From NCBI GenBank assembly GCA_031269595.1, contig JAISYX010000030.1, positions 1-23,053 of the forward strand: a stretch of DNA of 23,053 bases. Reading direction: 5' to 3'. Positions 2,654 to 22,753 of the stretch are shown one piece after another. Under the pieces are notes generated by a model. It worked only from the letters and a program-made list of their open reading frames with translations, ran no database searches and was not told where the DNA came from. Each line of letters begins with the position of its first letter. Position 1 is the stretch's first letter. The DNA is from Oscillospiraceae bacterium. Its GTDB lineage: Bacteria; Bacillota; Clostridia; Oscillospirales; Acutalibacteraceae. The translations under genes were made by a program, and so were the position numbers.

Positions 2654-2887
2654 GTGAACGAGCTTCTTATTGACATTGCAAAGGGCTTGGTTGAAGAGCC
2701 TGAGGCAGTGAGCGTTGAGGTTGATGAGGTTAACGAGGAGGGTATTATTGTATACCATCTTAAGGTAGCCGATGATGACAAGGGCCGTGTAATAGGCAAG
2801 CAGGGCAGAATTGCAAAGGCAATCCGCACTGTTATGCGTGCAGCAGCCAACCGCCAAAACCTAAAGGTTTCGGTTGAAATTGACTAA
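2654..2887 (+). CDS. KH domain RNA-binding protein (YlqC/UPF0109 family)
   Basis: GKVIGKQGRIAKAIRTVMRAAA KH motif. The start is either ATG 2642, inside the leader element, or GTG 2654, which gives the usual family N-terminus. Confidence 0.8.
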   Translation: MNELLIDIAKGLVEEPEAVSVEVDEVNEEGIIVYHLKVADDDKGRVIGKQGRIAKAIRTVMRAAANRQNLKVSVEID

Positions 2888-2910
2888 CATAGTTCATTAA
2901 CCAAACAAAG

Positions 2911-2947
2911 GCCGTGAAGCAAATTAAAGCTTCACGGCACTTTTAAT
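2911..2947 (+). terminator. Rho-independent terminator GCCGTGAAGC-aaattaaa-GCTTCACGGC then ACTTTTAATT
   Basis: 10-bp perfect stem plus T-rich tail, directly 3' of the KH gene. It ends the operon before the rimM/trmD/rplS genes that normally follow. Confidence 0.7.
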
Positions 2948-2950
2948 TAA

Positions 2951-3290
2951 ATTGAAAATTGAAAGTTGAAAGTTGAAAGTTAAGGCTAATTTGCTGCGCA
3001 AATTTAAAAGAATATAATTCCCCTCAACGGAGGGGTGCCCCAAAGGGGCAGGGTGGTTTATACGTCAGCAAACACTTTAAAGTAACGCTTAATTAAGAGC
3101 GAGCACAAAGCTAAAAAGCAAGCACCACGCTCCAAAATTCACAAATCAAAAGAGTAGTGCGCCCGCAAAACCACCCTCTCTTCCTCCTACGGGGCGGAAG
3201 AATGCCCCTCCGAAGAGGGGAATTTAGTCGGCAGCCCGAACCCTTAAATCAAAATTTGCGCAGCAAATCCACCTTCATTATGCATTATCA
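2951..3290 (+). repeat. MITE-like repeat, family 1, copy 1, about 340 bp. Layout: TTGAAAG heptamer repeats, AATTTGCTGCGCAAATT hairpin, a 45-55 bp GC-rich TIR (AATTCCCCTCaacgGAGGGGtgCCCC...GGTGGTTT), an A-rich 170-bp core, the inverted TIR, then AAATTTGCGCAGCAAAT hairpin
   Basis: About 85-90% identical to 14083-14445 (same orientation) and 16852-17203 (inverted). No credible ORF. Sits between convergent genes. Confidence 0.75.
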
Positions 3291-3291
3291 A

Positions 3292-3978
3292 TTATACATT
3301 AATCAAAACTGGCGCAAATCCTGTGTAATCGCAGGAGATTAGCTTAAACTTTGTGCCCTCGTTTTCGCCGTTAAAGGCTTTTTTGTGTGCTATCCCGTGC
3401 AGATGTCCGTAATATACCCTTTTAATGCTGTATTCCTGCAGCACTGCAAGTATCTCCTCGCAGGTGTATTCGCCCATAATTGGGGGGTAATGCAGGAACA
3501 CAACAGGCTCAAGGCCTGTTTTTGCAGCCTCCTCTATAGAGGCTCGCAGCCTGCCCGCCTCCCGCAGTATAATGCGCTTGTCGTCCTCTCCTGCGTCAAG
3601 ACTCCAGCCCCGAGTTCCGCATAGACAAAGCCCCTCAACAGCCTTGCAGGAGTTGTGGATAATCTCCAGCGTGTTAAAGCCCTGCTCTGCAAAGAAGCTT
3701 TCCATTTTGCGGCGGGTGCTCCACCAGTAATCGTGATTCCCCTTTATAAGCAGCTTTGTTCCGGGCAAGGAGTTGAGGAAGACAAAGTCTGTGCGGGTGT
3801 TTTCCAGCCGCATAGCCCAAGAAATATCCCCTGCAATTACCACCGTATCCTCAGGCTTTACAAGGGCATTCCAGTTTTTTTCGATTTTTTCTGTGTAGCT
3901 CTCCCACCCGCGAAAGATGTCCATGGGCTTGTCTGTGCCCAGTGAGAGGTGTAAATCTGCTATTGCAAAAATTGCCAT
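3292..3978 (-). CDS. Metallophosphoesterase (calcineurin-like phosphoesterase, YfcE-like)
   Basis: DLHLS, GDISWA and GNHDYW metal-binding motifs. The last about 4 codons lie in the MITE flank. Confidence 0.75.
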   Translation of the reverse strand: MAIFAIADLHLSLGTDKPMDIFRGWESYTEKIEKNWNALVKPEDTVVIAGDISWAMRLENTRTDFVFLNSLPGTKLLIKGNHDYWWSTRRKMESFFAEQGFNTLEIIHNSCKAVEGLCLCGTRGWSLDAGEDDKRIILREAGRLRASIEEAAKTGLEPVVFLHYPPIMGEYTCEEILAVLQEYSIKRVYYGHLHGIAHKKAFNGENEGTKFKLISCDYTGFAPVLINV

Positions 3979-4057
3979 TAAAACACCATGTGTTAGAGAG
4001 CCCGCACACTAATAAGTCATCAAAAGTTCACCCTTTGTGCCTGCGTCTCTACCCTTC
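3979..4057 (-). promoter_or_regulatory. Leader element copy C3 (long form), ending at the metallophosphoesterase ATG
   Basis: Minus-strand sense reads GAAGGGTAGAGACGCAGGCACA...GTGTGCGGGCTCTCTAACACATGGTGTTTTAATG. Confidence 0.6.
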
Positions 4058-4074
4058 TTATTTTTTTAAAACTG

Positions 4075-4113
4075 ACACCATGTGTTAGAGAGCACACTGC
4101 GCTCTGCCTTTCA
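4075..4113 (-). promoter_or_regulatory. Leader element copy C3' (short form), in tandem upstream of C3, followed by a 7-codon mini-ORF MVSVLKK
   Basis: Sense reads GAAAGGCAGAGCGCAGTGTGCTCTCTAACACATGGTGTCAGTTTTAAAAAAATAA. Confidence 0.5.
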
Positions 4114-5711: not shown

Positions 5712-5986
5712 ATGTAAAAATCCCCCTTTTAACATGAACAATTTGTGCAATTTTAAGCAACTTATAGCATATTAACCCATATTGCCACAAAATTTGCGAT
5801 AACTGTATTGATTATAACATATGCAACCTGAAATGTAAATAGTTTTATAATCAAAATGTTTTGGAAAAATTTGATAGTTGGATTTTTGTAAGTAGTGGTT
5901 TGTGGAGTGCTCTGTAAATCTTAAAATTTCAAATTCGCCCACAACGCTACAGTGGTACACCAAATGAATTTGAAGCCACAAAAGCT

Positions 5987-6160
5987 GCGTCATTGCGAGC
6001 ACGCAACAAAGCCGGAATAACAGTAAAGTGCGGTGTGCGAAGCAATCCAGTGGAACAAGGCCAGACGTCCCATAGTAGCACAGGGGCTTAAGTCCCACTG
6101 GATTGCTTCGCACTTGTAACCGCATGGTAAACTCAAGCTCAGCGGTGCTCGCAATGACGC
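5987..6160. repeat. Nested-palindrome repeat, family 2, copy A, about 174 bp. Outer stem GCGTCATTGCGAGCAC/GTGCTCGCAATGACGC encloses an inner stem GTGCGAAGCAATCCAGTGG/CCACTGGATTGCTTCGCAC
   Basis: Second copy at 12952-13125 in the opposite orientation. The overlapping ORF 5772..6206 is judged spurious. Confidence 0.7.
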
Positions 6161-6376
6161 ACGTCAGTGGGGCGATAGAAAAGTAACATTCCTCACGCTC
6201 TCTCACATTCCGCCCGGTCTACATGTGGACGTAAAAAGTTTTAGTTGTTACAAGGTAGTAGCAGCAAATTTTTAATCGAAATTGCGAAAATTGCTAAAAA
6301 ACTGCGAAATCAGGCAAAAAACTGCGCAACAGCGAGCTAATCTCAGCTAATCGCCGAATATGTCAACAAATCAGGG

Positions 6377-7034: not shown

Positions 7035-7108
7035 CGAAAGGTGGAGACGCAGCATACACTTTTTAATAAATTGTTGGTGTGCGGGCTCTCTGACACATGG
7101 TGTTTGTT
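7035..7108 (+). promoter_or_regulatory. Leader element copy C4 (long form)
   Basis: CGAAAGGTGGAGACGCAGCATACAC-ttttaataaatt-GTTGGTGTGCGGGCTCTCTGACACATGGTGTTTGTTATG. Confidence 0.6.
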
Positions 7109-8487: not shown

Positions 8488-8533
8488 AGTTAGAAAATTG
8501 CAAATTTAAAATGACAAATGGCAAATGAAGGTT

Positions 8534-8550
8534 AATTTGCTTCGCAAATT
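8534..8550 (+). repeat. Solo AATTTGC-ttc-GCAAATT hairpin preceded by caaat-type tandem repeats
   Basis: Same palindrome that caps the family-1 MITE copies. Confidence 0.5.
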
Positions 8551-8580
8551 TAAACAATTAAAAATCAGGAGGAAAATGTT

Positions 8581-12855: not shown

Positions 12856-12951
12856 GAATTTCAGCTCCTTTGTTTGTGATTATTGATTGCTCTGTCTGTG
12901 GGGATATGCGAGAGCGTTAGGAATGTTGTGTTTCTATCGCCTCGCTGCCGT

Positions 12952-13125
12952 GCGTCATTGCGAGCACCGCTACGCTTGAGTGTATCATAGGGTTACAAGT
13001 GCGAAGCAATCCAGTGGGACTAAGCCCTTGCGGCTTCGATTGAACGTCTAGCCTTGCTCCACTGGATTGCTTCGCACACCAAACATCACTGTTGGTTTAG
13101 CTTGGTTGCGTGCTCGCAATGACGC
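12952..13125. repeat. Nested-palindrome repeat, family 2, copy B (inverted relative to copy A)
   Basis: Same outer and inner stems as 5987-6160. The spacers are reverse complements of copy A. About 80-85% identity. Confidence 0.7.
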
Positions 13126-13206
13126 AGCTTTTATGGCTTCAAAATCATTTAGTGCACCGCTGTAGCTTTGCGGGCGAATGCAATTCGCTCCTACAGTTTT
13201 TAGATG

Positions 13207-14082: not shown

Positions 14083-14445
14083 AATTGAAAATTGAAAGTT
14101 GAAAATTGAAAGTTATGGTGAATTTGCTGCGGCAAATTTAAATTAAAAAAGAATATAATTCCCCTCAACGGAGGGGTGCCCCGAAGGGGCGGGGTGGTTT
14201 ATGCATCCGCAAACGCCCTAAATTAACACCTATTTAAGAGCGAGCACAAAACCAAAAAGCTAATAGGCAAGAACCACGCATCAAAATTCAAAAAAGCAAG
14301 AGCATCCCGCCCGCAGACACAACCCTCGTCTTTCGCCCCGCAGGTGAAAGCCTTCCCCTCCGAAGAGGGGAATTTTAGGTGGCTGGGGCTTGAACCCTTT
14401 TAATCAAAATTTGCGTTAGCAAATCCGCAACTCTTCACTTTTCAC
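14083..14445 (+). repeat. MITE-like repeat, family 1, copy 2
   Basis: Heptamer repeats plus AATTTGCTGCGGCAAATT hairpin at 14121-14138, TIRs, and an AAATTTGCGTTAGCAAAT hairpin at 14407-14424. Confidence 0.75.
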
Positions 14446-15243
14446 TCAATCAAAGTATCCTTCTCTATATAGGTCTATATAATTTTCGCAATATTCATCA
14501 CGGCCAATCAGAGCCTCTGTGGCCAAGACAAGGCACATAAGCTCCTTGTCAAGCGGGTTTAGGATTGCGCTGTCCATCCCTGCTATAATGGCCGCTACAA
14601 GAAAGGCACGGTTGATGTACTTTCGAGCCGGCAGACCATAGGAGATGTTGGAAAGTCCGCAGGTTATGTGAACCTTGGGATATTCAGTGCGTATGGTGCG
14701 TATAACCTCCAGTGAAGAAAGCCCCGCGTCCTCCTCAACCCCTAAGGGGCTGAGCATTGGGTCTATGTAAATATCCTCAAGGGCAAGGCCTTTGCCGCTA
14801 AGCTTTTCAATTAGAGTGCGGGAGAGGCCTATCCTCTCCTCGGCGGTTTGGGGTATCCCGTTGTCGTCCATACACAGGGCAAGTATGCCTGCATTGTACT
14901 TCTTTGCAAGGGCAGACATTTTTTCAAAGCGTTCTGCCTCCAGTGTGGTGGAATTGATAAGGGGCTTAGGGCCTTGATACACCTTTAAGGCCTGAGCCAT
15001 AGCCTCATAGCCAGGGCTGTCTATGCACAGGGGCAGAGTGGTGTTTGCCGCAATAAGCTTGACTAATTGGCTTAGCTTTTCGGCCTCTTCCTCCCCGAAC
15101 ATACCTGCATTTACATCCAAAAAGGCCGCTCCGGCCTTTGCTTGTGCCTGTGCAAGCTCTATAAGCTTAGCCTCATTCCAAGAGGCCATGGCCTCACGCA
15201 CAGAGGGTATAGAGCTGTTTAGCTTTTCACCTATTATTATCAT
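14446..15243 (-). CDS. Pterin-binding domain methyltransferase (MtrH/AcsE-like methyl-THF:corrinoid methyltransferase family)
   Basis: DHPS-like TIM-barrel motifs (IIGEKLNSS, LDVNAG, ITCGLSNISYGLP). Probable real start ATG 15243, 13 nt after the leader-element GTG at 15276. Confidence 0.6.
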   Translation of the reverse strand: MIIIGEKLNSSIPSVREAMASWNEAKLIELAQAQAKAGAAFLDVNAGMFGEEEAEKLSQLVKLIAANTTLPLCIDSPGYEAMAQALKVYQGPKPLINSTTLEAERFEKMSALAKKYNAGILALCMDDNGIPQTAEERIGLSRTLIEKLSGKGLALEDIYIDPMLSPLGVEEDAGLSSLEVIRTIRTEYPKVHITCGLSNISYGLPARKYINRAFLVAAIIAGMDSAILNPLDKELMCLVLATEALIGRDEYCENYIDLYREGYFD

Positions 15244-15324
15244 TTGTTGACACCACGTGTCAGAGAGCCCGCACACAAAACTCTGTAAAAGATGTTTTGC
15301 TGGGCTTCCTGCGTCCTTTCTTGG
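15244..15324 (-). promoter_or_regulatory. Leader element copy C6 (long form)
   Basis: Sense reads CAAGAAAGGACGCAGGAAGCCCAGC...TTTTGTGTGCGGGCTCTCTGACACGTGGTGTCAACAAATG. Confidence 0.6.
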
Positions 15325-15339
15325 TTATTTTTCAAACGT

Positions 15340-16830
15340 TTAGTTCTCCAGTTTTATTGATTTAAGCCCGTAATATTTGCAAACTGTCATGTTTCTCCAG
15401 TCAGCGGTATCCTCTGTAATGTCGTCAAAGAAGAGTAGCGGCGGCTTGACGGAGTAGGGCTTTATCACGACATCCCCGCCTCTTGAGCTGCGACAGAGCG
15501 CAGTTCTTTGAACAGCCTCAGAATAGAACAACGCCGCCTCCCCTGATTTTATGGCAGCAAGAGCCTTAAAGGAGGCCGCCTCTGAAGCTTTAAAGGTAAA
15601 GGTAAAGCTCAAAAGCAGAGCAAGCGCAAAAGCGGCTATTGCCGAGCCTCTCACGGTTCGGAACTGCTTTGACCTAAGCTTAGACCTTATCAATGGAAGC
15701 AGCCTCTTGTGAACATATCCGCACATATAAAACAGAGCAGAAAATACGGCAAGGATGAATCCAAAATAGCAGGTTTCGCTTATTCTGCCCTTTTCCACGC
15801 CGCCTACTGCGTAAATCGGCGCAAAAAACTGAGCACAATAGCAGCAGTATATCACAGCCAAGGCCAAAATCGGCTTTTTAAAGATTAACTTACTCCCCTT
15901 GGCAGCCCTGTATATGAATGGCAAAATAAGCAGAAATACAAAAATAAATGCATGGCTTGCCCCTGATTTTGCAAATATCAGACCATATTTTAATGACCTG
16001 TAAATCGCAGGAAAAAACGGAGTTCCTGTAAAGAACTCGCTGCGGCTTTGAGTGCCCGGGGAGCTAACATTTAAAAGCAGTCCAAGGGCAGAGCACAGGA
16101 ACGCAGCCAAGTAATGCCACTTCTGTTTTAAAAAGCTGCGTCTTTCCCCTATTATCTGCCACAGACATAACAGCCCTAGCACTGTAGGAAAAAGGCTTGC
16201 GGTGATAAGGTTTGCGCCTCCCACTAAAAAGGAGAGGGCAGTGCACAGAACTCCAAGCACAACCTTGCCTCGCTTGCCATCCATTTTTATGACTAAAAGC
16301 AGAGAGAGCAGCATAAGCGCAAGGGAATAGAGCACAGTATAGGATATTGCGGCAGAGTACCAATAATACATTTGAACGGGGATTTTAACAAAATTTACCG
16401 TTACAAAGCTCACCGCAAGATATATTACAAACAGCCTTTTAGGCGGGATTCCCAGCACCTTAGGCAGTGCCCAGAGAAAAAACACAGCATTGGAGGCCAC
16501 AAGCGCACTTACTGAAATAAAGCATGTGATAAAATAGCAGCTCTCCCCAAATATATTGGGAGGAACAGCCGCAAGAAACATGCTTGTAAAGCAACCGTTG
16601 TATCTGCCGTATATGCTAATTGAGGAGTGAAATGCAGAGCTTAGCACTGCCAAAATAGAGTGTGTAGAATCCCACACCGCCGCCGCCGCTGCTCCCTGAG
16701 CAAAGTCGTCAGCAGAGGGCACGGCATACATGCCCAGCATATAAAGGGGCAGCAGACTGAGCAAAAACGCCCCCAGAAGAGCTGTGTTAAACCCTTTAGA
16801 GCCGCAAAAAGCCTTTATTTTGCAAAGCAC
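15340..16830 (-). CDS. Polytopic integral membrane protein, at least 12 TM segments, function unknown (possibly a GT-C-like glycosyltransferase)
   Basis: Highly hydrophobic 496-aa ORF. AAGAGGGGAA then about 10 nt then GTG start. Confidence 0.5.
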   Translation of the reverse strand: MLCKIKAFCGSKGFNTALLGAFLLSLLPLYMLGMYAVPSADDFAQGAAAAAVWDSTHSILAVLSSAFHSSISIYGRYNGCFTSMFLAAVPPNIFGESCYFITCFISVSALVASNAVFFLWALPKVLGIPPKRLFVIYLAVSFVTVNFVKIPVQMYYWYSAAISYTVLYSLALMLLSLLLVIKMDGKRGKVVLGVLCTALSFLVGGANLITASLFPTVLGLLCLWQIIGERRSFLKQKWHYLAAFLCSALGLLLNVSSPGTQSRSEFFTGTPFFPAIYRSLKYGLIFAKSGASHAFIFVFLLILPFIYRAAKGSKLIFKKPILALAVIYCCYCAQFFAPIYAVGGVEKGRISETCYFGFILAVFSALFYMCGYVHKRLLPLIRSKLRSKQFRTVRGSAIAAFALALLLSFTFTFKASEAASFKALAAIKSGEAALFYSEAVQRTALCRSSRGGDVVIKPYSVKPPLLFFDDITEDTADWRNMTVCKYYGLKSIKLEN

Positions 16831-16851
16831 AAAACCAGTTCCCCTCTTTGT

Positions 16852-17203
16852 TGATTCGTAATGCGTAATTCGTAATTAAAGGTGGATTTGCTGCGCAAAT
16901 TTTAATTCAATACTATCGATTAACACTGCCCTAATTCCCCTCTTCGGAGGGGAATTCTTCCGCCTACAGGGAGGAAGAGAGGGTGGTGCCTGCGGGAGTA
17001 CTACTCTCTTGATTTGTGAATTTTGGAGCGTGGTGCTTGCCTTTTAGCTTTTGGTTTTGTGCTCGCTCTTAATTATGTGTTAGTTTAAAGTGTTTGAGGA
17101 TGCATAAACCACCCCGCCCCTGCGGGGCACCCCTCCGTTGAGGGGAATGATATTATAAATCAAAATTTGCAAAGCAAATCCACCTTTAATTACGCATTAC
17201 GAA
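16852..17203 (-). repeat. MITE-like repeat, family 1, copy 3 (inverted), abutting the stop codon of the SDR gene
   Basis: Reverse complement is about 90% identical to copy 1. Outer TIR AAAGGTGGATTTGCTGCGCAAATTT matches AAATTTGCAAAGCAAATCCACCTTT, and the cgtaatg-type flanks are also inverted. Confidence 0.75.
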
Positions 17204-17920
17204 TCATGCATTAAACAACCCATCTACCCCCAAAACCTGCCCTGTTATAAAGCCGGCCTCAGTTGAGGCCAGGAACAGTGCGGCGTTTGCCACCTCATCG
17301 GGAGTGCCAATGCGCCCTAATGCGCTTTGAGCGGCCAGCTCGTTTAAATCCTCGGGGCTAAAGCCATGCAGCATTTGGGTGTTAATTACCCCGGGACTTA
17401 TGCAGTTTACCCTTATGCCCGAGGGTCCAAGCTCCTTTGCCAAGGCCTTAGTCAGGCCTATAACCGCCGCCTTTGCGGCCGAATACGCCGCCTCGCAGGA
17501 GGCTCCCGCCTCCCCCCATATAGAGGACATGGTTATAACAGAGCCGCTTTTGCGGCTTATCATTTGGGGCAGGATAAAATGGCTTGCATTGTATATGCTC
17601 TTAACATTAACGGCAAACAGCCTATCCCATTCCTTAGGGCTAAGCTCTGTAAACAGGCCGTAGGAGGCCGCTCCCGCATTGCAAACCAGCACATCAACAT
17701 GGCCAAGCTGAGAGAGAATCTCCTTGCAGCTGGCCTCAGTTTGAGCGTAATCGGCGCAGTCACATTTAAAAGCGGCTGCGCCTGTATTTTTAGAAAGAGA
17801 GCGTGCCTCAGCCCCACTGTTAAGATAGGTAAAAGCACAATTATATCCATTTTGCGTGAATTTTATAACGATTTCACGACCTATCCCACGTGAACCGCCA
17901 ACAATTAATGCTGTTTTCAT
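17204..17920 (-). CDS. Short-chain dehydrogenase/reductase (FabG-like 3-oxoacyl-ACP reductase family)
   Basis: TALIVGGSRGIGREI Rossmann motif, NAG, and a YSAAK catalytic motif. ATG 17920 is preferred over the ORF-track GTG 17935. Confidence 0.8.
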   Translation of the reverse strand: MKTALIVGGSRGIGREIVIKFTQNGYNCAFTYLNSGAEARSLSKNTGAAAFKCDCADYAQTEASCKEILSQLGHVDVLVCNAGAASYGLFTELSPKEWDRLFAVNVKSIYNASHFILPQMISRKSGSVITMSSIWGEAGASCEAAYSAAKAAVIGLTKALAKELGPSGIRVNCISPGVINTQMLHGFSPEDLNELAAQSALGRIGTPDEVANAALFLASTEAGFITGQVLGVDGLFNA

Positions 17921-21639: not shown

Positions 21640-21660
21640 AGTTAAACCTCCCTTTTAAGT

Positions 21661-21715
21661 TGAAAATTGAAAGTTGAAAGTTGAAAATTAAGGCGAATTT
21701 GCTGCGGCAAATTTT
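21661..21715. repeat. Partial family-1 left flank only: TTGAAAG heptamer repeats plus AATTTGCTGCGGCAAATT hairpin, acting as a terminator-like hairpin 3' of rnfD
   Basis: Matches the left ends of the MITE copies but no TIR or core follows. Confidence 0.55.
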
Positions 21716-21787
21716 GATTAAAGGGTTTAAACTCTTCCTCCCTCCAAGAGGGAGCCAGGTAATTTAGGAATTCTTGCATCTTACCTC

Positions 21788-22753
21788 TTACCTCTTGCCT
21801 CTAGCCGCTAGCTGCATCCCCAGTCTATCCAGCGAATAGGATACGGCGTTTACCATTAATATTGCAAAGCAGGCCCCCTGCTCGTATATTCCAAAATACC
21901 GCAAAAGCATACATAGCAGGCCTCCCAGTGCGCCGTACATACCCCTTGCCACTGAGGACTTAGGGGCGGTGGAGGGCTCAGCTGCCATAAACACTCCCGC
22001 AAACACAAGCGAGCCTGAGAGCAGCTCAAAGGTGAGTGATTCCAGCCTGTTGCCCGGGATTCTGGGGAACAGCAGAGCAAAAACTGCGGCCGTTCCAATA
22101 AAAAACACAGGAATTTGCCACGGGACAGTCTTCCTTAGCATAAGATATATAGCACAGGCTGCAATTACCAGCACTGCACTTGTCCCCATAGGCCCGGGGA
22201 AGTTGCCCAAGGCCATCTCTGAAGGGAATATATCAGGCCTTGTGTGCCTGTGCAGCAGCAGTGCAGGGGATTCTACCCCCGCCAGATTAGGGTTTGCAAA
22301 AACAGGCAGAGGCTCAAGGAGCTTGGTATCTCTGTATTTAAATAATTCGCCTGTAAAAAATACGGTTGCAAAGGCTACGCCGCCTGCGGCGGGGTTAAAT
22401 GGGGTGTTACCCATGCCGCCTAAGGGCATCTTTACTACCAGAATTGCAAAAGCCGAGGCGGCCACAGGCAGCCACAGCGGAGCAGAAACAGGCATTAGCA
22501 TAGCAACAACAAGCCCAGTTACTACTGCTGAAAGGTCGGCTACTGTTATGTCCTTTCTTGCGAAAAGGCAGAAGAGAGCCTCAGAGACAACAGCCGAAAG
22601 CACAGCTGCTCCCGTTATGCTCAGCACCCTTAAGCTGCTGTAAATAAACGGTACTATAAGCAGCATAAGCAGCGGGATTATGGCATCCATCATAACAGAG
22701 CGTGAGGATTCTTTTTTTCTTACATGGGGAGCAAGCGCAAAATTTAGCGGCAT
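21788..22753 (-). CDS. rnfD: RnfD/NqrB family membrane subunit
   Basis: GGMGNTPFNPA signature. Alternative start ATG 22765 gives MVFVM, but that prefix comes from the leader element. No rnfC, rnfG or rnfB adjacent. Confidence 0.7.
   Translation of the reverse strand: MPLNFALAPHVRKKESSRSVMMDAIIPLLMLLIVPFIYSSLRVLSITGAAVLSAVVSEALFCLFARKDITVADLSAVVTGLVVAMLMPVSAPLWLPVAASAFAILVVKMPLGGMGNTPFNPAAGGVAFATVFFTGELFKYRDTKLLEPLPVFANPNLAGVESPALLLHRHTRPDIFPSEMALGNFPGPMGTSAVLVIAACAIYLMLRKTVPWQIPVFFIGTAAVFALLFPRIPGNRLESLTFELLSGSLVFAGVFMAAEPSTAPKSSVARGMYGALGGLLCMLLRYFGIYEQGACFAILMVNAVSYSLDRLGMQLAARGKR

Follow-up and report, generated by a model that had tools for sequence, protein, structure and literature searches.

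The question raised by this locus is whether a repeat bounded by GC-rich hairpins, found in three places in the intergenic DNA of an Oscillospiraceae bacterium, is a mobile element, a structured RNA or something else, and what might move it if it is mobile. The window analysed here is the whole 23,053-nt stretch of contig JAISYX010000030.1. Three full copies of the repeat unit (352-368 bp) lie within it at 2952-3303 (+), 14085-14452 (+) and 16854-17206 (-), and their flanks are unrelated. The sequence comparison agrees with a first-pass annotation, made from the sequence alone, that three copies occur at about these positions and that the third is inverted; the 85-90% identity claimed there was too high, the measured pairwise values being 75-79% for the complete unit, 79-89% for its inner 209-218 bp and 59-87% for the outer parts. 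Additionally, two partial copies (8491-8560 and 21653-21815) had been overlooked. The longest stop-free stretch in the copies is 55-62 codons; they hold no ORF and are therefore interpreted as non-autonomous, MITE-like elements.

The repeat is organized in two nested layers, an outer shell and an inner module. The shell, of about 150 bp, comprises heptamer arrays, two ATTTGC-N3-4-GCAAAT hairpins and a central CCCCTC-N4-GAGGGG hairpin, which in full reads AATT-CCCCTC-N4-GAGGGG-AATT; the inner module (209-218 bp) is bounded on each side by one copy of this central hairpin. The inverted ends of the module are 43-56 bp long, close to the 45-55 bp given earlier for GC-rich hairpin inverted repeats, and are built from CCCCTC-N4-GAGGGG and GCCCC-N3-GGGGC hairpins. 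The left end (LE) consists of AATT, hairpin A (CCCCTC..GAGGGG), T, hairpin B (GCCCC..GGGGC) and GGGGTGGTT, and the right end (RE), its inverted partner, consists of AACCACCC, hairpin B', hairpin A' and AATT. The core between them is A-rich (43% A) and without an ORF, as previously described, but its length is 111-119 nt rather than 170 bp. The outer hairpins and heptamers are also inverted between the two ends of the unit. Heptamer arrays (TTGAAAR, CGTAATK, CATTATK and others) flank the outer hairpins and form part of the inverted ends in copies 2 and 3, and the motifs AAGGYNR and CCACCTT are confined to the outer sides, where they pair mutually across the element. What had been taken for a cap palindrome AAGGTGGATTTGC...GCAAATCCACCTT at both ends is instead a separate ATTTGC-N3-4-GCAAAT hairpin for each unit end.

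Copy 1, on the forward strand, lies between the khpA terminator, a terminator-like hairpin at 2911-2938, and the stop of a convergent metallophosphoesterase gene. Its left shell (2952-3005) contains four TTGAAAR heptamers (2952-2981), AAGGCT and the hairpin AATTTGC-TGC-GCAAATT (2988-3004). The LE (3016-3058) reads AATT, hairpin A CCCCTC-AACG-GAGGGG (3020-3035), T, hairpin B GCCCC-AAA-GGGGC (3037-3049) and AGGGTGGTT, and fits the cross-phylum consensus described below; the A-rich, non-coding core (3059-3168) is lineage-specific and has no similarity to the DUF559 genes discussed below. The RE (3169-3224) reads AACCACCC, hairpin B' CTTCCTCC-TACGG-GGCGGAAG (3180-3200), AATG, hairpin A' CCCCTC-CGAA-GAGGGG (3205-3220) and AATT, and the right shell (3225-3303) is composed of a spacer, the hairpin ATTTGC-GCA-GCAAAT (3254-3268), CCACCTT and CATTATG-like heptamers (3276-3303). 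The metallophosphoesterase stop (3292-3294) and last codons lie inside these right-hand heptamers, which bears out the statement that the flank of this copy encodes the last residues of that protein; the statement that rimM, trmD and rplS are missing at this site is likewise correct as a description of the window.

Copy 2 has its LE at 14157-14199, core at 14200-14317, RE at 14318-14374 and outer hairpins at 14120-14139 and 14409-14424. It is located between the stop of a pterin-binding gene (14446-14448, -) and the start region of a metallophosphoesterase gene (~14067, -) and is antisense to both; its RE has the variant CACAACCC. Copy 3, in forward-strand order, has its RE at 16933-16988, core at 16989-17106 and LE at 17107-17149, and its outer hairpins are found at 16886-16900 and 17165-17179. 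Its start is at the stop codon of the SDR gene (17204-17206), as had been reported; it ends about 24 nt before the GTG (16830) of a DUF6056 gene, and is sense to both genes. Copies 2 and 3 are thus intergenic spacers between same-strand genes: the claim that copies always abut gene 3' ends holds in that each lies 3' of a gene, but these two directly precede the 5' end of the following gene as well. Of the two partial copies, both on the forward strand and lacking the inner module, the first is a solo left-type shell end (8491-8560) with a heptamer-like array and AAGGTTAATTTGC-TTC-GCAAATTT, placed between the stop of the Bax1-I gene (8487) and the RBS/ATG of the SPFH gene (8581). The second is a small shell-only element (21653-21815) with TTGAAAR heptamers, one outer hairpin (21693-21716), CTTACCT heptamers and a degenerate central hairpin (CTCCCTC-CAA-GAGGGAG). 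Several further families of small palindromic repeats were also observed in the window, and a separate GTAG-tagged REP-like family at its ends.

The module ends extend far beyond this contig. Genome contigs were scanned for the LE pattern, which turned up in more than 117 stretches representing many phyla, with carriers in Cyanobacteria (isolates included), Chlorobi, Fibrobacteres, Spirochaetes, Planctomycetes, Proteobacteria, Bacillota, Actinobacteria and others, and single genomes held 5-12 or more such stretches. The sequence common to the window and the cross-phylum loci is the ~43-nt end only. The family LE consensus (AATT, CCCCTC(C)-loop-(G)GAGGGG, T(G), a short GC hairpin and GGGGTGGT) is present in 3/3 window copies, and so is the RE consensus in inverted orientation (ACCACCC(C), a hairpin, CCCCTC(C)-loop-(G)GAGGGG and AAT(T)), at the LE and RE positions given above and as the reverse complement in copy 3. 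ORF-less LE-core-RE units keep the exact outer boundary (A)ATT, and ORF-bearing and ORF-less units with the same ends stand side by side in one contig (L004). Elements in two other contigs (L132 and L158) are 88% identical over 437 bp and have unrelated flanks, as would be expected of a mobile family. Most of the supporting loci are MAG or metagenome contigs; isolates with the LE motif are Oscillatoria, Laspinema and Streptomyces, and a Synechocystis plasmid carries a more distant DUF559 gene with related hairpins. Heptamer arrays were considered as a family hallmark and rejected, being found in 4/353 outward flanks vs. 6/2363 random sites (p = 0.03); they are a feature of particular lineages. 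A literature search covering DUF559, EDxHD, Vsr-like mobile elements, heptamer/MITE terms and the motif strings found no description of these ends.

Genomes other than that of the window contain these ends around a unit of 424-616 bp (between outer hairpins) whose sole gene encodes a DUF559 endonuclease of about 123 amino acids; loci in which LE and RE are separated by 500-640 bp contain a DUF559 gene inside. These proteins are Vsr/EDxHD-like (Pfam PF04480, E = 1e-28 to 1e-30; PDB 3HRL, E = 7e-16), and their EVDGSSHD motif shows no variation at E, D and H in a 7-sequence alignment. The DUF559 family has a Vsr-like fold and includes a proven homing endonuclease (PMC3239194, PMC3384342). The association was also examined in reverse, with 80 loci selected by DUF559 protein similarity alone, 70 of which had enough flank: hairpin A was present on both sides in 54/70, on one side in 12/70 and on neither in 4/70, compared with a background of 13/543 windows (2.4%). 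Gene and ends are closely fitted, with GGGGTGGT located 1-10 nt before the DUF559 ATG, at RBS distance, the RE overlapping the C-terminal codons, and a consistent spacing in 54 loci.

In the window copies, the LE junction, GGGGTGGTTTATGC(A/G)T, is the same as that from GGGGTGGT to ATG in the ORF-bearing elements. The window core was also considered as an internally deleted DUF559 gene, a candidate that was discarded: local alignment scores equalled those of shuffled sequence, a DUF559 HMM gave no match to the six-frame translation of the 23-kb window, and the GGGGTGGTTTATGC junction alone was similar. The autonomous partner with the same inverted repeats that the first-pass annotation had proposed to look for does appear to exist as DUF559-bearing units with the same LE and RE, in other genomes rather than on this contig; these genomes include Oscillospiraceae MAGs, in which the hairpin-end-associated DUF559 subfamily is common. 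In a plasmid collection, only distant DUF559 genes (<45% identity) were found. DUF559 relatives as a whole form 16,944 clusters at 50% identity, annotated just as "DUF559" or "endonuclease domain-containing". Stand-alone Vsr-like nucleases are not a known transposase class, which weighs against a mobile element driven by DUF559.

Combined, these results lead us to favor, with somewhat better than even confidence, the reading that the repeat is a composite, nested, non-autonomous mobile DNA element whose ends belong to a DUF559-linked family spread across phyla. Several observations weigh against this reading: the window has no DUF559 gene, no clear target-site duplication was found, just 8/117 LE-motif loci have a DUF559 gene nearby, and most of the supporting loci are MAG or metagenome contigs. 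A further proposal is made more tentatively, its probability falling somewhat short of even: the DUF559 units may constitute an unrecognized class of autonomous mobile element in which a Vsr/EDxHD-like nuclease, as the only protein, acts on hairpins or cruciforms at its own inverted ends, spreading horizontally through most bacterial phyla and yielding ORF-less, MITE-like offspring such as the three window copies. Such hairpin-ended units would rank among the smallest known mobile elements.

The main alternative, which we regard as unlikely, is that the hairpin modules are REP-like repeats spread by host recombination, replication or another enzyme, and that DUF559 is a separate selfish homing endonuclease that lands between hairpins, so that the window copies would never have been moved by DUF559. 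A DUF559 gene is nearby in just 8/117 LE-motif loci, and given this proportion the ends could be acted on by a different enzyme; RE-spacer-LE arrangements occur, as do tandem partial units; one of the DUF559 relatives is a proven homing endonuclease (PMC3239194); DUF559 elements are found repeatedly at one position, between hsdS and hsdM, in type I restriction-modification operons of several phyla; and several other small palindromic repeat families share the window. This alternative is at odds with the integration of the ends with the gene (the GGGGTGGT motif at RBS distance and the RE over the C-terminal codons), with the consistency of the spacing over 54 loci and with the exact (A)ATT outer boundary shared by the ORF-less units. 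It also does not account for the matching of the two loops within an element above chance, the LE loop being the reverse complement of the RE loop in 14/46 elements (null 2.4 +/- 1.4). The DUF559 units are found in many unrelated contexts with their own inverted ends, and not in an intron or intein or at one defined homing site.

The mobile element reading can be compared with several known systems. Like the bacterial MITEs (Correia/NEMIS of Neisseria, RUP of pneumococcus and Nezha of cyanobacteria), the elements are small, ORF-less and multi-copy, with terminal inverted repeats able to form a long stem, intergenic positions near gene ends and ends in common with an ORF-bearing relative; the window repeat is below ~600 bp, has no coding capacity, carries terminal inverted repeats and is dispersed (3 full and 2 partial copies in 23 kb). 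Unlike in MITEs, the ORF-bearing relative encodes just the ~123-aa Vsr-like nuclease, without DDE or other recognized transposase; the ends are two discrete hairpins conserved almost base for base among phyla; no clear target-site duplication was seen, just AATT on either side; and the window copy is nested in a second palindromic element. The REP/REPIN-RAYT systems are similar in having short GC-rich palindromes scattered through intergenic DNA, frequently paired as inverted doublets that build a larger hairpin, an enzyme gene flanked by the repeats and hairpins presumed to act as DNA. RAYTs, however, are HUH proteins (IS200/IS605 TnpA-like), usually single-copy and vertically inherited, whereas the enzyme here is a PD-(D/E)XK/Vsr-like nuclease and the unit looks horizontally spread; REPs bear a GTAG or CGTC tag and are lineage-specific, whereas the hairpin sequence here is common to phyla. 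At hairpin A the REP tag is absent, with AATT flanks instead of GTAG/CGTC, and no RAYT-like family was found among the window ORFs.

The partner gene belongs to the same superfamily as the EDxHD/Vsr-like homing endonucleases such as I-Bth0305I (Pfam DUF559/Vsr clan), with conserved E, D, H and D, and selfish, mobile behavior has been documented for members of this superfamily (PMC3239194, PMC3384342; Dassa et al. 2009). Known EDxHD members reside in group I introns, inteins or free-standing phage genes and possess an additional DNA-binding region and a single defined homing site; the DUF559 proteins here, in contrast, are a bare domain of about 120 amino acids surrounded by hairpin inverted repeats in many unrelated contexts, with ORF-less derivatives. 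Finally, IS200/IS605 elements and their PATE derivatives are also very small, with ends defined by DNA hairpins rather than long duplex repeats and with hairpin-only non-autonomous derivatives. Their ends are not inverted repeats, since both hairpins lie on the same strand, and they depend on a Y1 HUH transposase that works on single-stranded DNA, whereas the ends described here are true inverted repeats with no associated HUH gene.

The hairpins themselves bear on whether the repeat functions as DNA or in a transcript. In hairpin B, 3/4 pairs change on both sides in a compensatory manner and 97.8% of cells are paired, with 81 distinct sequences among 137, so that conservation is structural and not of sequence; G-T pairs make up just 7/592 stem pairs. 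Its loops are GNA triloops in 99/129 cases, nearly all of them C-G-closed, and the GNA loop is found at both ends on the inward-reading strand. The sequence d(C-GNA-G) forms an unusually stable DNA mini-hairpin, and the symmetrical placement of the GNA loop at both ends is as expected for DNA, suggesting a role at the DNA level. The covariation, the scarcity of G-T pairs, the C-GNA-G triloops and the occurrence of copies in either orientation to transcription together favor DNA hairpins over a functional RNA.

The first-pass annotation had also offered a structured 3'-UTR, terminator or insulator RNA, and this reading, extended to a stable ncRNA acting in the transcript, is now considered quite improbable. 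It draws on the very stable predicted fold, which for the whole unit is much stronger than in shuffled sequence on either strand (z = -7.3 and -9.0), on the position of the copies in intergenic spacers by gene 3' ends, and on the terminator-like score of hairpin A with AATT and an A/T-rich tail when read outward; REP-type repeats are, moreover, known to affect mRNA stability. Against it, Rfam returned nothing at gathering score for the whole window and 12 related loci, and in E-value mode the 431-nt stretch 2900-3330 gave a best E of 0.5 or worse, with scores far below gathering thresholds; no tRNA or tmRNA was found in the window. Promoter and terminator signals were close to, and not above, the shuffled expectation, copy 2 is antisense and copy 3 sense to its own operon, and RNAalifold of the three inner modules gave a covariation term of -0.1 with broken core pairs and no conserved core pairing. 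A single transcript would have GNA at one end and UNC at the other, G-U is almost absent in hairpin B, and the same ends enclose a protein gene elsewhere.

The nesting of the two layers is apparent from the incongruent identities of shell and inner module among the copies. The left shell is most similar between copies 1 and 2 (87%), yet their inner modules are the least similar (79%); for copies 1 and 3 the order is reversed (left shell 60%, inner module 89%). The solo and shell-only partial copies in the window further support the nesting. A related contig (L118) encodes an SDR protein 89% identical to that of the window and, immediately behind the orthologous SDR stop, carries a shell that has just one central hairpin and lacks the inner module; the window copies minus the inner module align to this shell. 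Presence/absence polymorphism of the inner module, for which a comparison of orthologous loci had been suggested, was thus observed at one orthologous site. The L118 state could reflect a deletion between two hairpin-A copies, which would count against the nested mobile element, rather than an empty target. The shell has so far been seen only in the window and this related contig, and BLAST of the window core and shell against 200 loci recovered the shell in L118 only. A metagenome scan with the core-specific pattern TTAAGAGCGAGCAC..AAAGCTAA gave 0 matches, an exact-sequence look-up of the window proteins gave no record, and no close relatives were found for the copy 2 site, the next pterin-binding homologue being 56% identical. 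Conservation stops at (A)ATT outside hairpin A on both sides, and this AATT may be part of the end or a duplicated target. The MITE-like reading of the first-pass annotation is strengthened by the nested anatomy, the presence or absence of the module in L118 and the ends shared with the DUF559 family.

The single hairpin A in L118 also resembles a site that is not occupied, and a copy of hairpin A borders the module on each side, as would be expected if hairpin A were the core site of a site-specific recombination system (att, dif or integron attC-like) and the module a cassette that integrates and excises as a circle; the alternation of gene-sized and short segments between RE-spacer-LE junctions in two contigs (L004 and L028) points the same way. 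We consider this very improbable. The hairpin-A loops are inverted in the 14/46 elements noted above and directly identical in just 1/46, which fits inverted ends and not attL/attR, and a direct-repeat model was rejected on this ground; single hairpins with both outer flanks (ATT...AAT), considered as a common empty site, are rare elsewhere (1/283 and 1/202); and no recombinase gene recurs near the loci. The attC core site GTTRRRY is absent in L004 and the window copies, and in place of integron R''/R' sites (RYYYAAC ... GTTRRRY) the boundaries are AACCACCCC ... GGGGTGGTT or AATT ... AATT. Segmental duplication or chance low-complexity similarity, to which the presence of two metallophosphoesterase genes, one by copy 1 and one by copy 2, might be thought to lend weight, has a negligible probability, given dissimilar flanks, sharp repeat boundaries, genes placed differently relative to the element, the inversion of copy 3 and an identity of 79-89% over 210 bp that is far beyond chance.

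Returning to the nested mobile element, a possible course of events can be outlined. The inner module sits at the central hairpin of the shell, with LE and RE as the terminal inverted repeats of a family spread over many bacterial phyla, and these ends would function in the form of DNA hairpins or cruciforms. They may be cut or nicked by a DUF559 nuclease whose gene lies at another place in the genome, after which transposition, or break-induced copying from shell to shell, would copy or move the ORF-less module. The part of DUF559 in moving the element is inferred. Any effects on neighboring genes, such as mRNA 3'-end stabilization or partial termination, would be a by-product.

Taken alone, the window displays an ordinary phenomenon, namely the colonization of intergenic DNA by small palindromic repeats. 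Beyond it, a double-hairpin end of about 45 nt, nearly identical in sequence in phyla as far apart as Cyanobacteria and Bacillota, surrounds the gene of a very common protein without known function, and these ends point to a widespread and apparently undescribed family of very small mobile elements. If it is true that DUF559 moves these units, a large DUF family would gain a function, and a new nuclease class would join the DNA-mobilizing enzymes. The same activity would account for many spurious ORF extensions and assembly breaks in metagenomes, and would provide a compact nuclease that recognizes DNA hairpins.

A repeat search and a three-way alignment confirmed that the ORF-less repeat is genuine, with full copies at 2952-3303 (plus strand), 14085-14452 (plus) and 16854-17206 (minus), the third being inverted as the first-pass annotation had described. 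The window is the complete 23,053-bp contig of an Oscillospiraceae MAG, and its gene content (ylxM-ffh-rpsP-khpA, LXG/YwqH and Rnf genes) is consistent with Clostridia. The flanks of the three copies are unrelated; therefore, segmental duplication, the alternative raised in that annotation, is excluded. Identity between copies was measured at 75-79% over the whole unit rather than the 85-90% first estimated, and at 79-89% over the inner 209-218 bp; by part, it was 91-95% in the left inner end (LE), 78-88% in the core, 76-89% in the right inner end (RE) and 59-87% in the outer parts. The core is A-rich as described (43% A), spanning 111-119 nt instead of 170 bp, and the reported lack of an ORF agrees with a longest stop-free stretch of 55-62 codons in the element. 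Eight ATTTGC-N3-4-GCAAAT hairpins, not six, were found in the window, the extra two belonging to partial copies at 8491-8560 and at 21653-21815, the latter a shell without the inner module.

Direct comparison of the copies revealed a nested structure in which an outer shell encloses an inner module. The left half of each full copy consists, in order, of a heptamer array, AAGGYNR, the hairpin ATTTGC-N3-4-GCAAAT, ~15 nt and AATT; LE runs from AATT through hairpin A (CCCCTC-N4-GAGGGG), T, hairpin B (GCCCC-N3-GGGGC) and GGGGTGGTT to the core. After the core, RE comprises AACCACCC, hairpin B' (8 bp), hairpin A' and AATT, followed in the right shell by ~25 nt, the hairpin ATTTGC-N3-4-GCAAAT, CCACCTT and a heptamer array. 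Deleting in silico from the end of hairpin A through the end of hairpin A' leaves a ~150-bp shell that can be aligned lengthwise with a natural element of L118, a related contig (close relatives were scarce). On that contig, which encodes an SDR protein 89% identical to the one in the window, a shell with one central hairpin and no inner module lies immediately 3' of the orthologous SDR stop codon. The presence/absence comparison that had been proposed for orthologous loci was thereby answered at one site with a directly observed difference, either insertion or deletion, and hairpin A is the precise point at which the inner module is gained or lost. The loop of the single L118 hairpin, CGTT, is the reverse complement of the window LE loop, AACG; on this one observation, template switching may have inverted the loop. 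The left shell is where copies 1 and 2 are nearest (87%) and the inner module where they are farthest (79%), and copies 1 and 3 show the reverse pattern (60% and 89%); given these differing identity patterns between layers, the inner module is a discrete unit with its own history.

The gene order adjoining the repeat also differs between window 16830-17206 and L118 1184-1341: in L118 the SDR gene and the minimal element are followed directly by a pterin-binding methyltransferase gene, and in the window these two genes are separated by one for a 496-aa DUF6056 membrane protein (15340-16830). The heptamer arrays (2952-2981, 3276-3303, 14085-14114, 14430-14452, 16854-16878 and 17187-17206; L118 1300-1330) vary in type by copy (TTGAAAR, CATTATK, CTYTTCA, CGTAATK), with inverted complements at the opposite ends of copies 2 and 3 and with CATTATT in L118 matching the position of CATTACG at the orthologous site; concerted evolution of the arrays, both inside each end and from one end to the other, seems likely. 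At 2887-3292, the rimM-trmD-rplS genes that usually follow ylxM-ffh-rpsP-khpA are absent; beyond a terminator-like hairpin (2911-2938) and copy 1 comes a convergent metallophosphoesterase gene, and a rearrangement breakpoint may lie at copy 1.

Additional repeats were observed in the window. GTAG-tagged palindromes in inverted pairs (e.g., GTAGGGGCAGACC..., GTAGGGGACGATGTCCACATCGTCCC) occur at both contig ends (120-197, 231-309 and 22882-22959), resemble a distinct family of the REP/REPIN type and may have caused the assembly to break there. A 279-nt repeat with many internal hairpins (GTGCGAAGCAATCCAGTGGGAC / GTCCCACTGGATTGCTTCGCAC) is present in two inverted copies of 83% identity (5933-6211 and 12901-13179); the ORF at 5772-6206 over one copy had no Pfam match, and the repeat is probably another non-coding palindromic family. 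Three unrelated genes, starting at 3978 (minus strand), 7097 (plus strand) and 15276 (minus strand), have their start codons overlapped by a ~40-nt motif, TTGGTGTGCGGGCTCTCTrACACATGGTG, at 3981-4025, 7061-7105 and 15250-15279; the motif has a fourth copy at 4070-4104 and could serve as a common leader/start-region cassette or as a mobile module carrying a promoter/RBS.

When one genome per species was scanned for the pattern CCCCTC-N-GAGGGG-N-GCCCC-N-GGGGC, at least 117 stretches matched, with 5-12 or more in some single genomes (e.g., Oscillospiraceae Hs463_bin105 and MAG D1_MAG_00021). Matches were found in Cyanobacteria (including the isolates Oscillatoria sp. HE19RPO and Laspinema olomoucense), Chlorobi, Fibrobacteres, Spirochaetes, Planctomycetes, Verrucomicrobia, Bacteroidota, Alpha-, Beta- and Gammaproteobacteria, Myxococcota, Actinobacteria (a Streptomyces isolate), Bacillota, one CPR lineage and others; the inner ends are not restricted to the lineage of the window. 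Only ~43 nt are common to the window and the matching stretches. The LE consensus is ATT-CCCCTCC-loop-GGAGGGG-T-GCCCC-loop-GGGGC-GGGGTGGT, with constant stems, variable loops and (A)ATT as the outward limit of conservation. Its RE partner, ACCACCCC-hairpin-CA-CCCCTCC-loop-GGAGGGG-AAT, lies 58-160 nt after LE in ORF-less, window-like units, ~500-640 nt after LE, or 29-50 nt ahead of LE where units abut.

Clustering of ORFs over the 117 listed loci identified one small protein recurring between LE and RE in different phyla, a bare Vsr-like PD-(D/E)XK domain matching Pfam DUF559 (PF04480, E = 1e-28 to 1e-30), whose EVDGSSHD motif has invariant E, D and H residues in a 7-sequence alignment; PDB 3HRL, an 'endonuclease-like protein', was the sole solved relative detected by sequence. 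In a reverse test, the best 80 of 555 confirmed metagenome loci were picked by DUF559 protein similarity alone, and hairpin A was sought within 250 nt at the 70 loci with at least 150 nt on each side. It was present on both sides at 54, on one side at 12 and on neither at 4, against a background of 13 in 543 windows of 250 nt (2.4%). In gene sense, these units read (A)ATT, hairpin A, TG, hairpin B, GGGGTGGT, 1-10 nt and ATG, and, after DUF559, ACCACCCCG, hairpin B', CA, hairpin A' and AAT; RE overlaps the C-terminal DUF559 codons, and hairpin A lies 424-616 bp from hairpin A'. The sharing of ends with the window element is a direct observation, extending to the window LE junction GGGGTGGTTTATGC(A/G)T, which is identical to the GGGGTGGT-to-ATG junction of DUF559 units (e.g., GGGGTGGTTTATGCGT in locus L150); no similarity was found between the window core and the DUF559 gene. 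ORF-bearing units with the same terminal repeats, as sought in the first-pass annotation, thus occur in other genomes, encoding a nuclease not known to form a transposase class instead of the transposase anticipated.

Loci L132 and L158 carry elements that share 88% identity over 437 bp between unrelated flanks, and at L004 a frameshifted ORF-bearing unit adjoins an ORF-less one of 85 nt whose ends are the same. The comparison loci are mostly MAG or metagenome contigs; a complete plasmid of Synechocystis sp. B12 carries a DUF559 of greater divergence (44% identity) between the related hairpins CCCCCTCTCC..GGCGAGGGGG and CCCCTCTCC..GGAGAGGGG, so the association holds in finished isolate sequence and reaches hairpin variants. 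This gene (CP101712.1, 35250-35950, with flanking CCCCTCTCC-type hairpins) is neighboured by a short DUF1156 CDS on one side and next by a 'hypothetical protein' CDS, and it may split a DUF1156 methylase gene. On the Pseudanabaena galeata plasmid NZ_CP112876.1, a DUF559 domain is annotated within a 4.9-kb CDS. Clustering at 90% identity divides the subfamily into at least 1,953 clusters (E <= 1e-20), many from Oscillospiraceae MAGs, with no names beyond 'DUF559 domain-containing', 'endonuclease domain-containing' or 'very-short-patch-repair endonuclease'. All DUF559 relatives together fall into 16,944 clusters when 50% identity is used (E <= 0.001) and are often called within longer ORFs, which suggests read-through annotation or in-frame insertions. 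In MAGs of Chlorobiaceae, Pseudomonadales and Proteobacteria, DUF559 units lie between hsdS and hsdM (L004, 2233-3110; L028, 3640-4500; L085, 1785-2340), with the hsdS reading frame extending into the hairpin end; L028 also holds a 40-nt repeat of right-end origin (AACCACCCCGTCTTTCGGGGAACCCTCCAGAGGAGAGTT) five times in tandem. At L067 (Turneriella), the same restriction-modification genes and an LE-RE pair were present and DUF559 was not detected.

We propose that a DUF559 nuclease encoded elsewhere would recognise the hairpin or cruciform ends and nick or cut there, after which the ORF-less module would be moved, or copied by repair into other shells, whose homology extends over 60-80 nt to either side. 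In the main rival explanation, which we consider unlikely, other means would have spread the hairpin modules as REP-like repeats, between which DUF559 settles as a homing-type selfish gene. In its favour, a DUF559 gene is nearby at only 8 of the 117 listed motif loci, type I restriction-modification operons of several phyla repeatedly have a unit between hsdS and hsdM, and we know of no stand-alone Vsr-like transposase.

The first-pass annotation had also offered a structured 3'-UTR, terminator or insulator RNA, and a pure RNA function is disfavoured by several results. Relative to the surrounding genes, copy 2 is antisense and copy 3 sense; promoter and terminator scans of the window were close to shuffled expectation, RNAalifold on the three inner modules gave a covariation term of -0.1 with core pairs broken, and Rfam returned no match. 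Hairpin A is constant in sequence, a consequence of sequence selection in alignment A3; the constant form is also the large majority in looser searches, with compensated variants at L187 and on the Synechocystis plasmid, both distant members. Hairpin B occurred in 81 distinct versions among 137, with both-side changes in three of the four pairs and 97.8% of cells paired (vs. 40-63% with the partner column shifted), a directly observed constraint: the hairpin is conserved as structure rather than sequence. Several of its features favour DNA, with G-T pairs at 7 of 592 stem pairs, GNA triloops in 99 of 129 loops and C-G closure in 122 of 129; d(C-GNA-G) is reported by Hirao and colleagues to be an unusually stable DNA mini-hairpin. 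The GNA loops are on the inward-reading strand at both ends, a symmetry natural for DNA ends, whereas in a single transcript one end would show GNA and the other UNC. We conclude that the element acts, if at all, as DNA, with an incidental hairpin effect on mRNA ends no more than conceivable. In 14 of 46 units the LE loop matches the reverse complement of its RE counterpart (null 2.4 +/- 1.4), and the two loops are directly identical in 1 of 46; LE and RE are thus true inverted repeats, an inverted symmetry that disfavours an att-like recombination model.

Compared with known systems, the window copies fit the descriptive criteria of a MITE, minus a demonstrable target-site duplication. The architecture resembles that of REPINs, which, unlike the window element, have a GTAG/CGTC tag and an HUH partner. 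The Vsr/EDxHD superfamily, home of the partner gene, includes the proven homing endonuclease I-Bth0305I (PMC3239194, PMC3384342); in contrast to known members, the DUF559 described here is a bare domain with its own inverted hairpin ends in many different genomic contexts. Full-text literature on DUF559, EDxHD and Vsr-like mobile elements gave no account of these ends, and the diagnostic strings GGAGGGGTGCCCC and GGGGCGGGGTGGT had no match, within an incomplete coverage that makes an earlier description possible. Overall, the window feature is rated as a MITE-like element with an unusual partner, and the DUF559 units may, at somewhat less than even chances, represent a new class of minimal mobile element.
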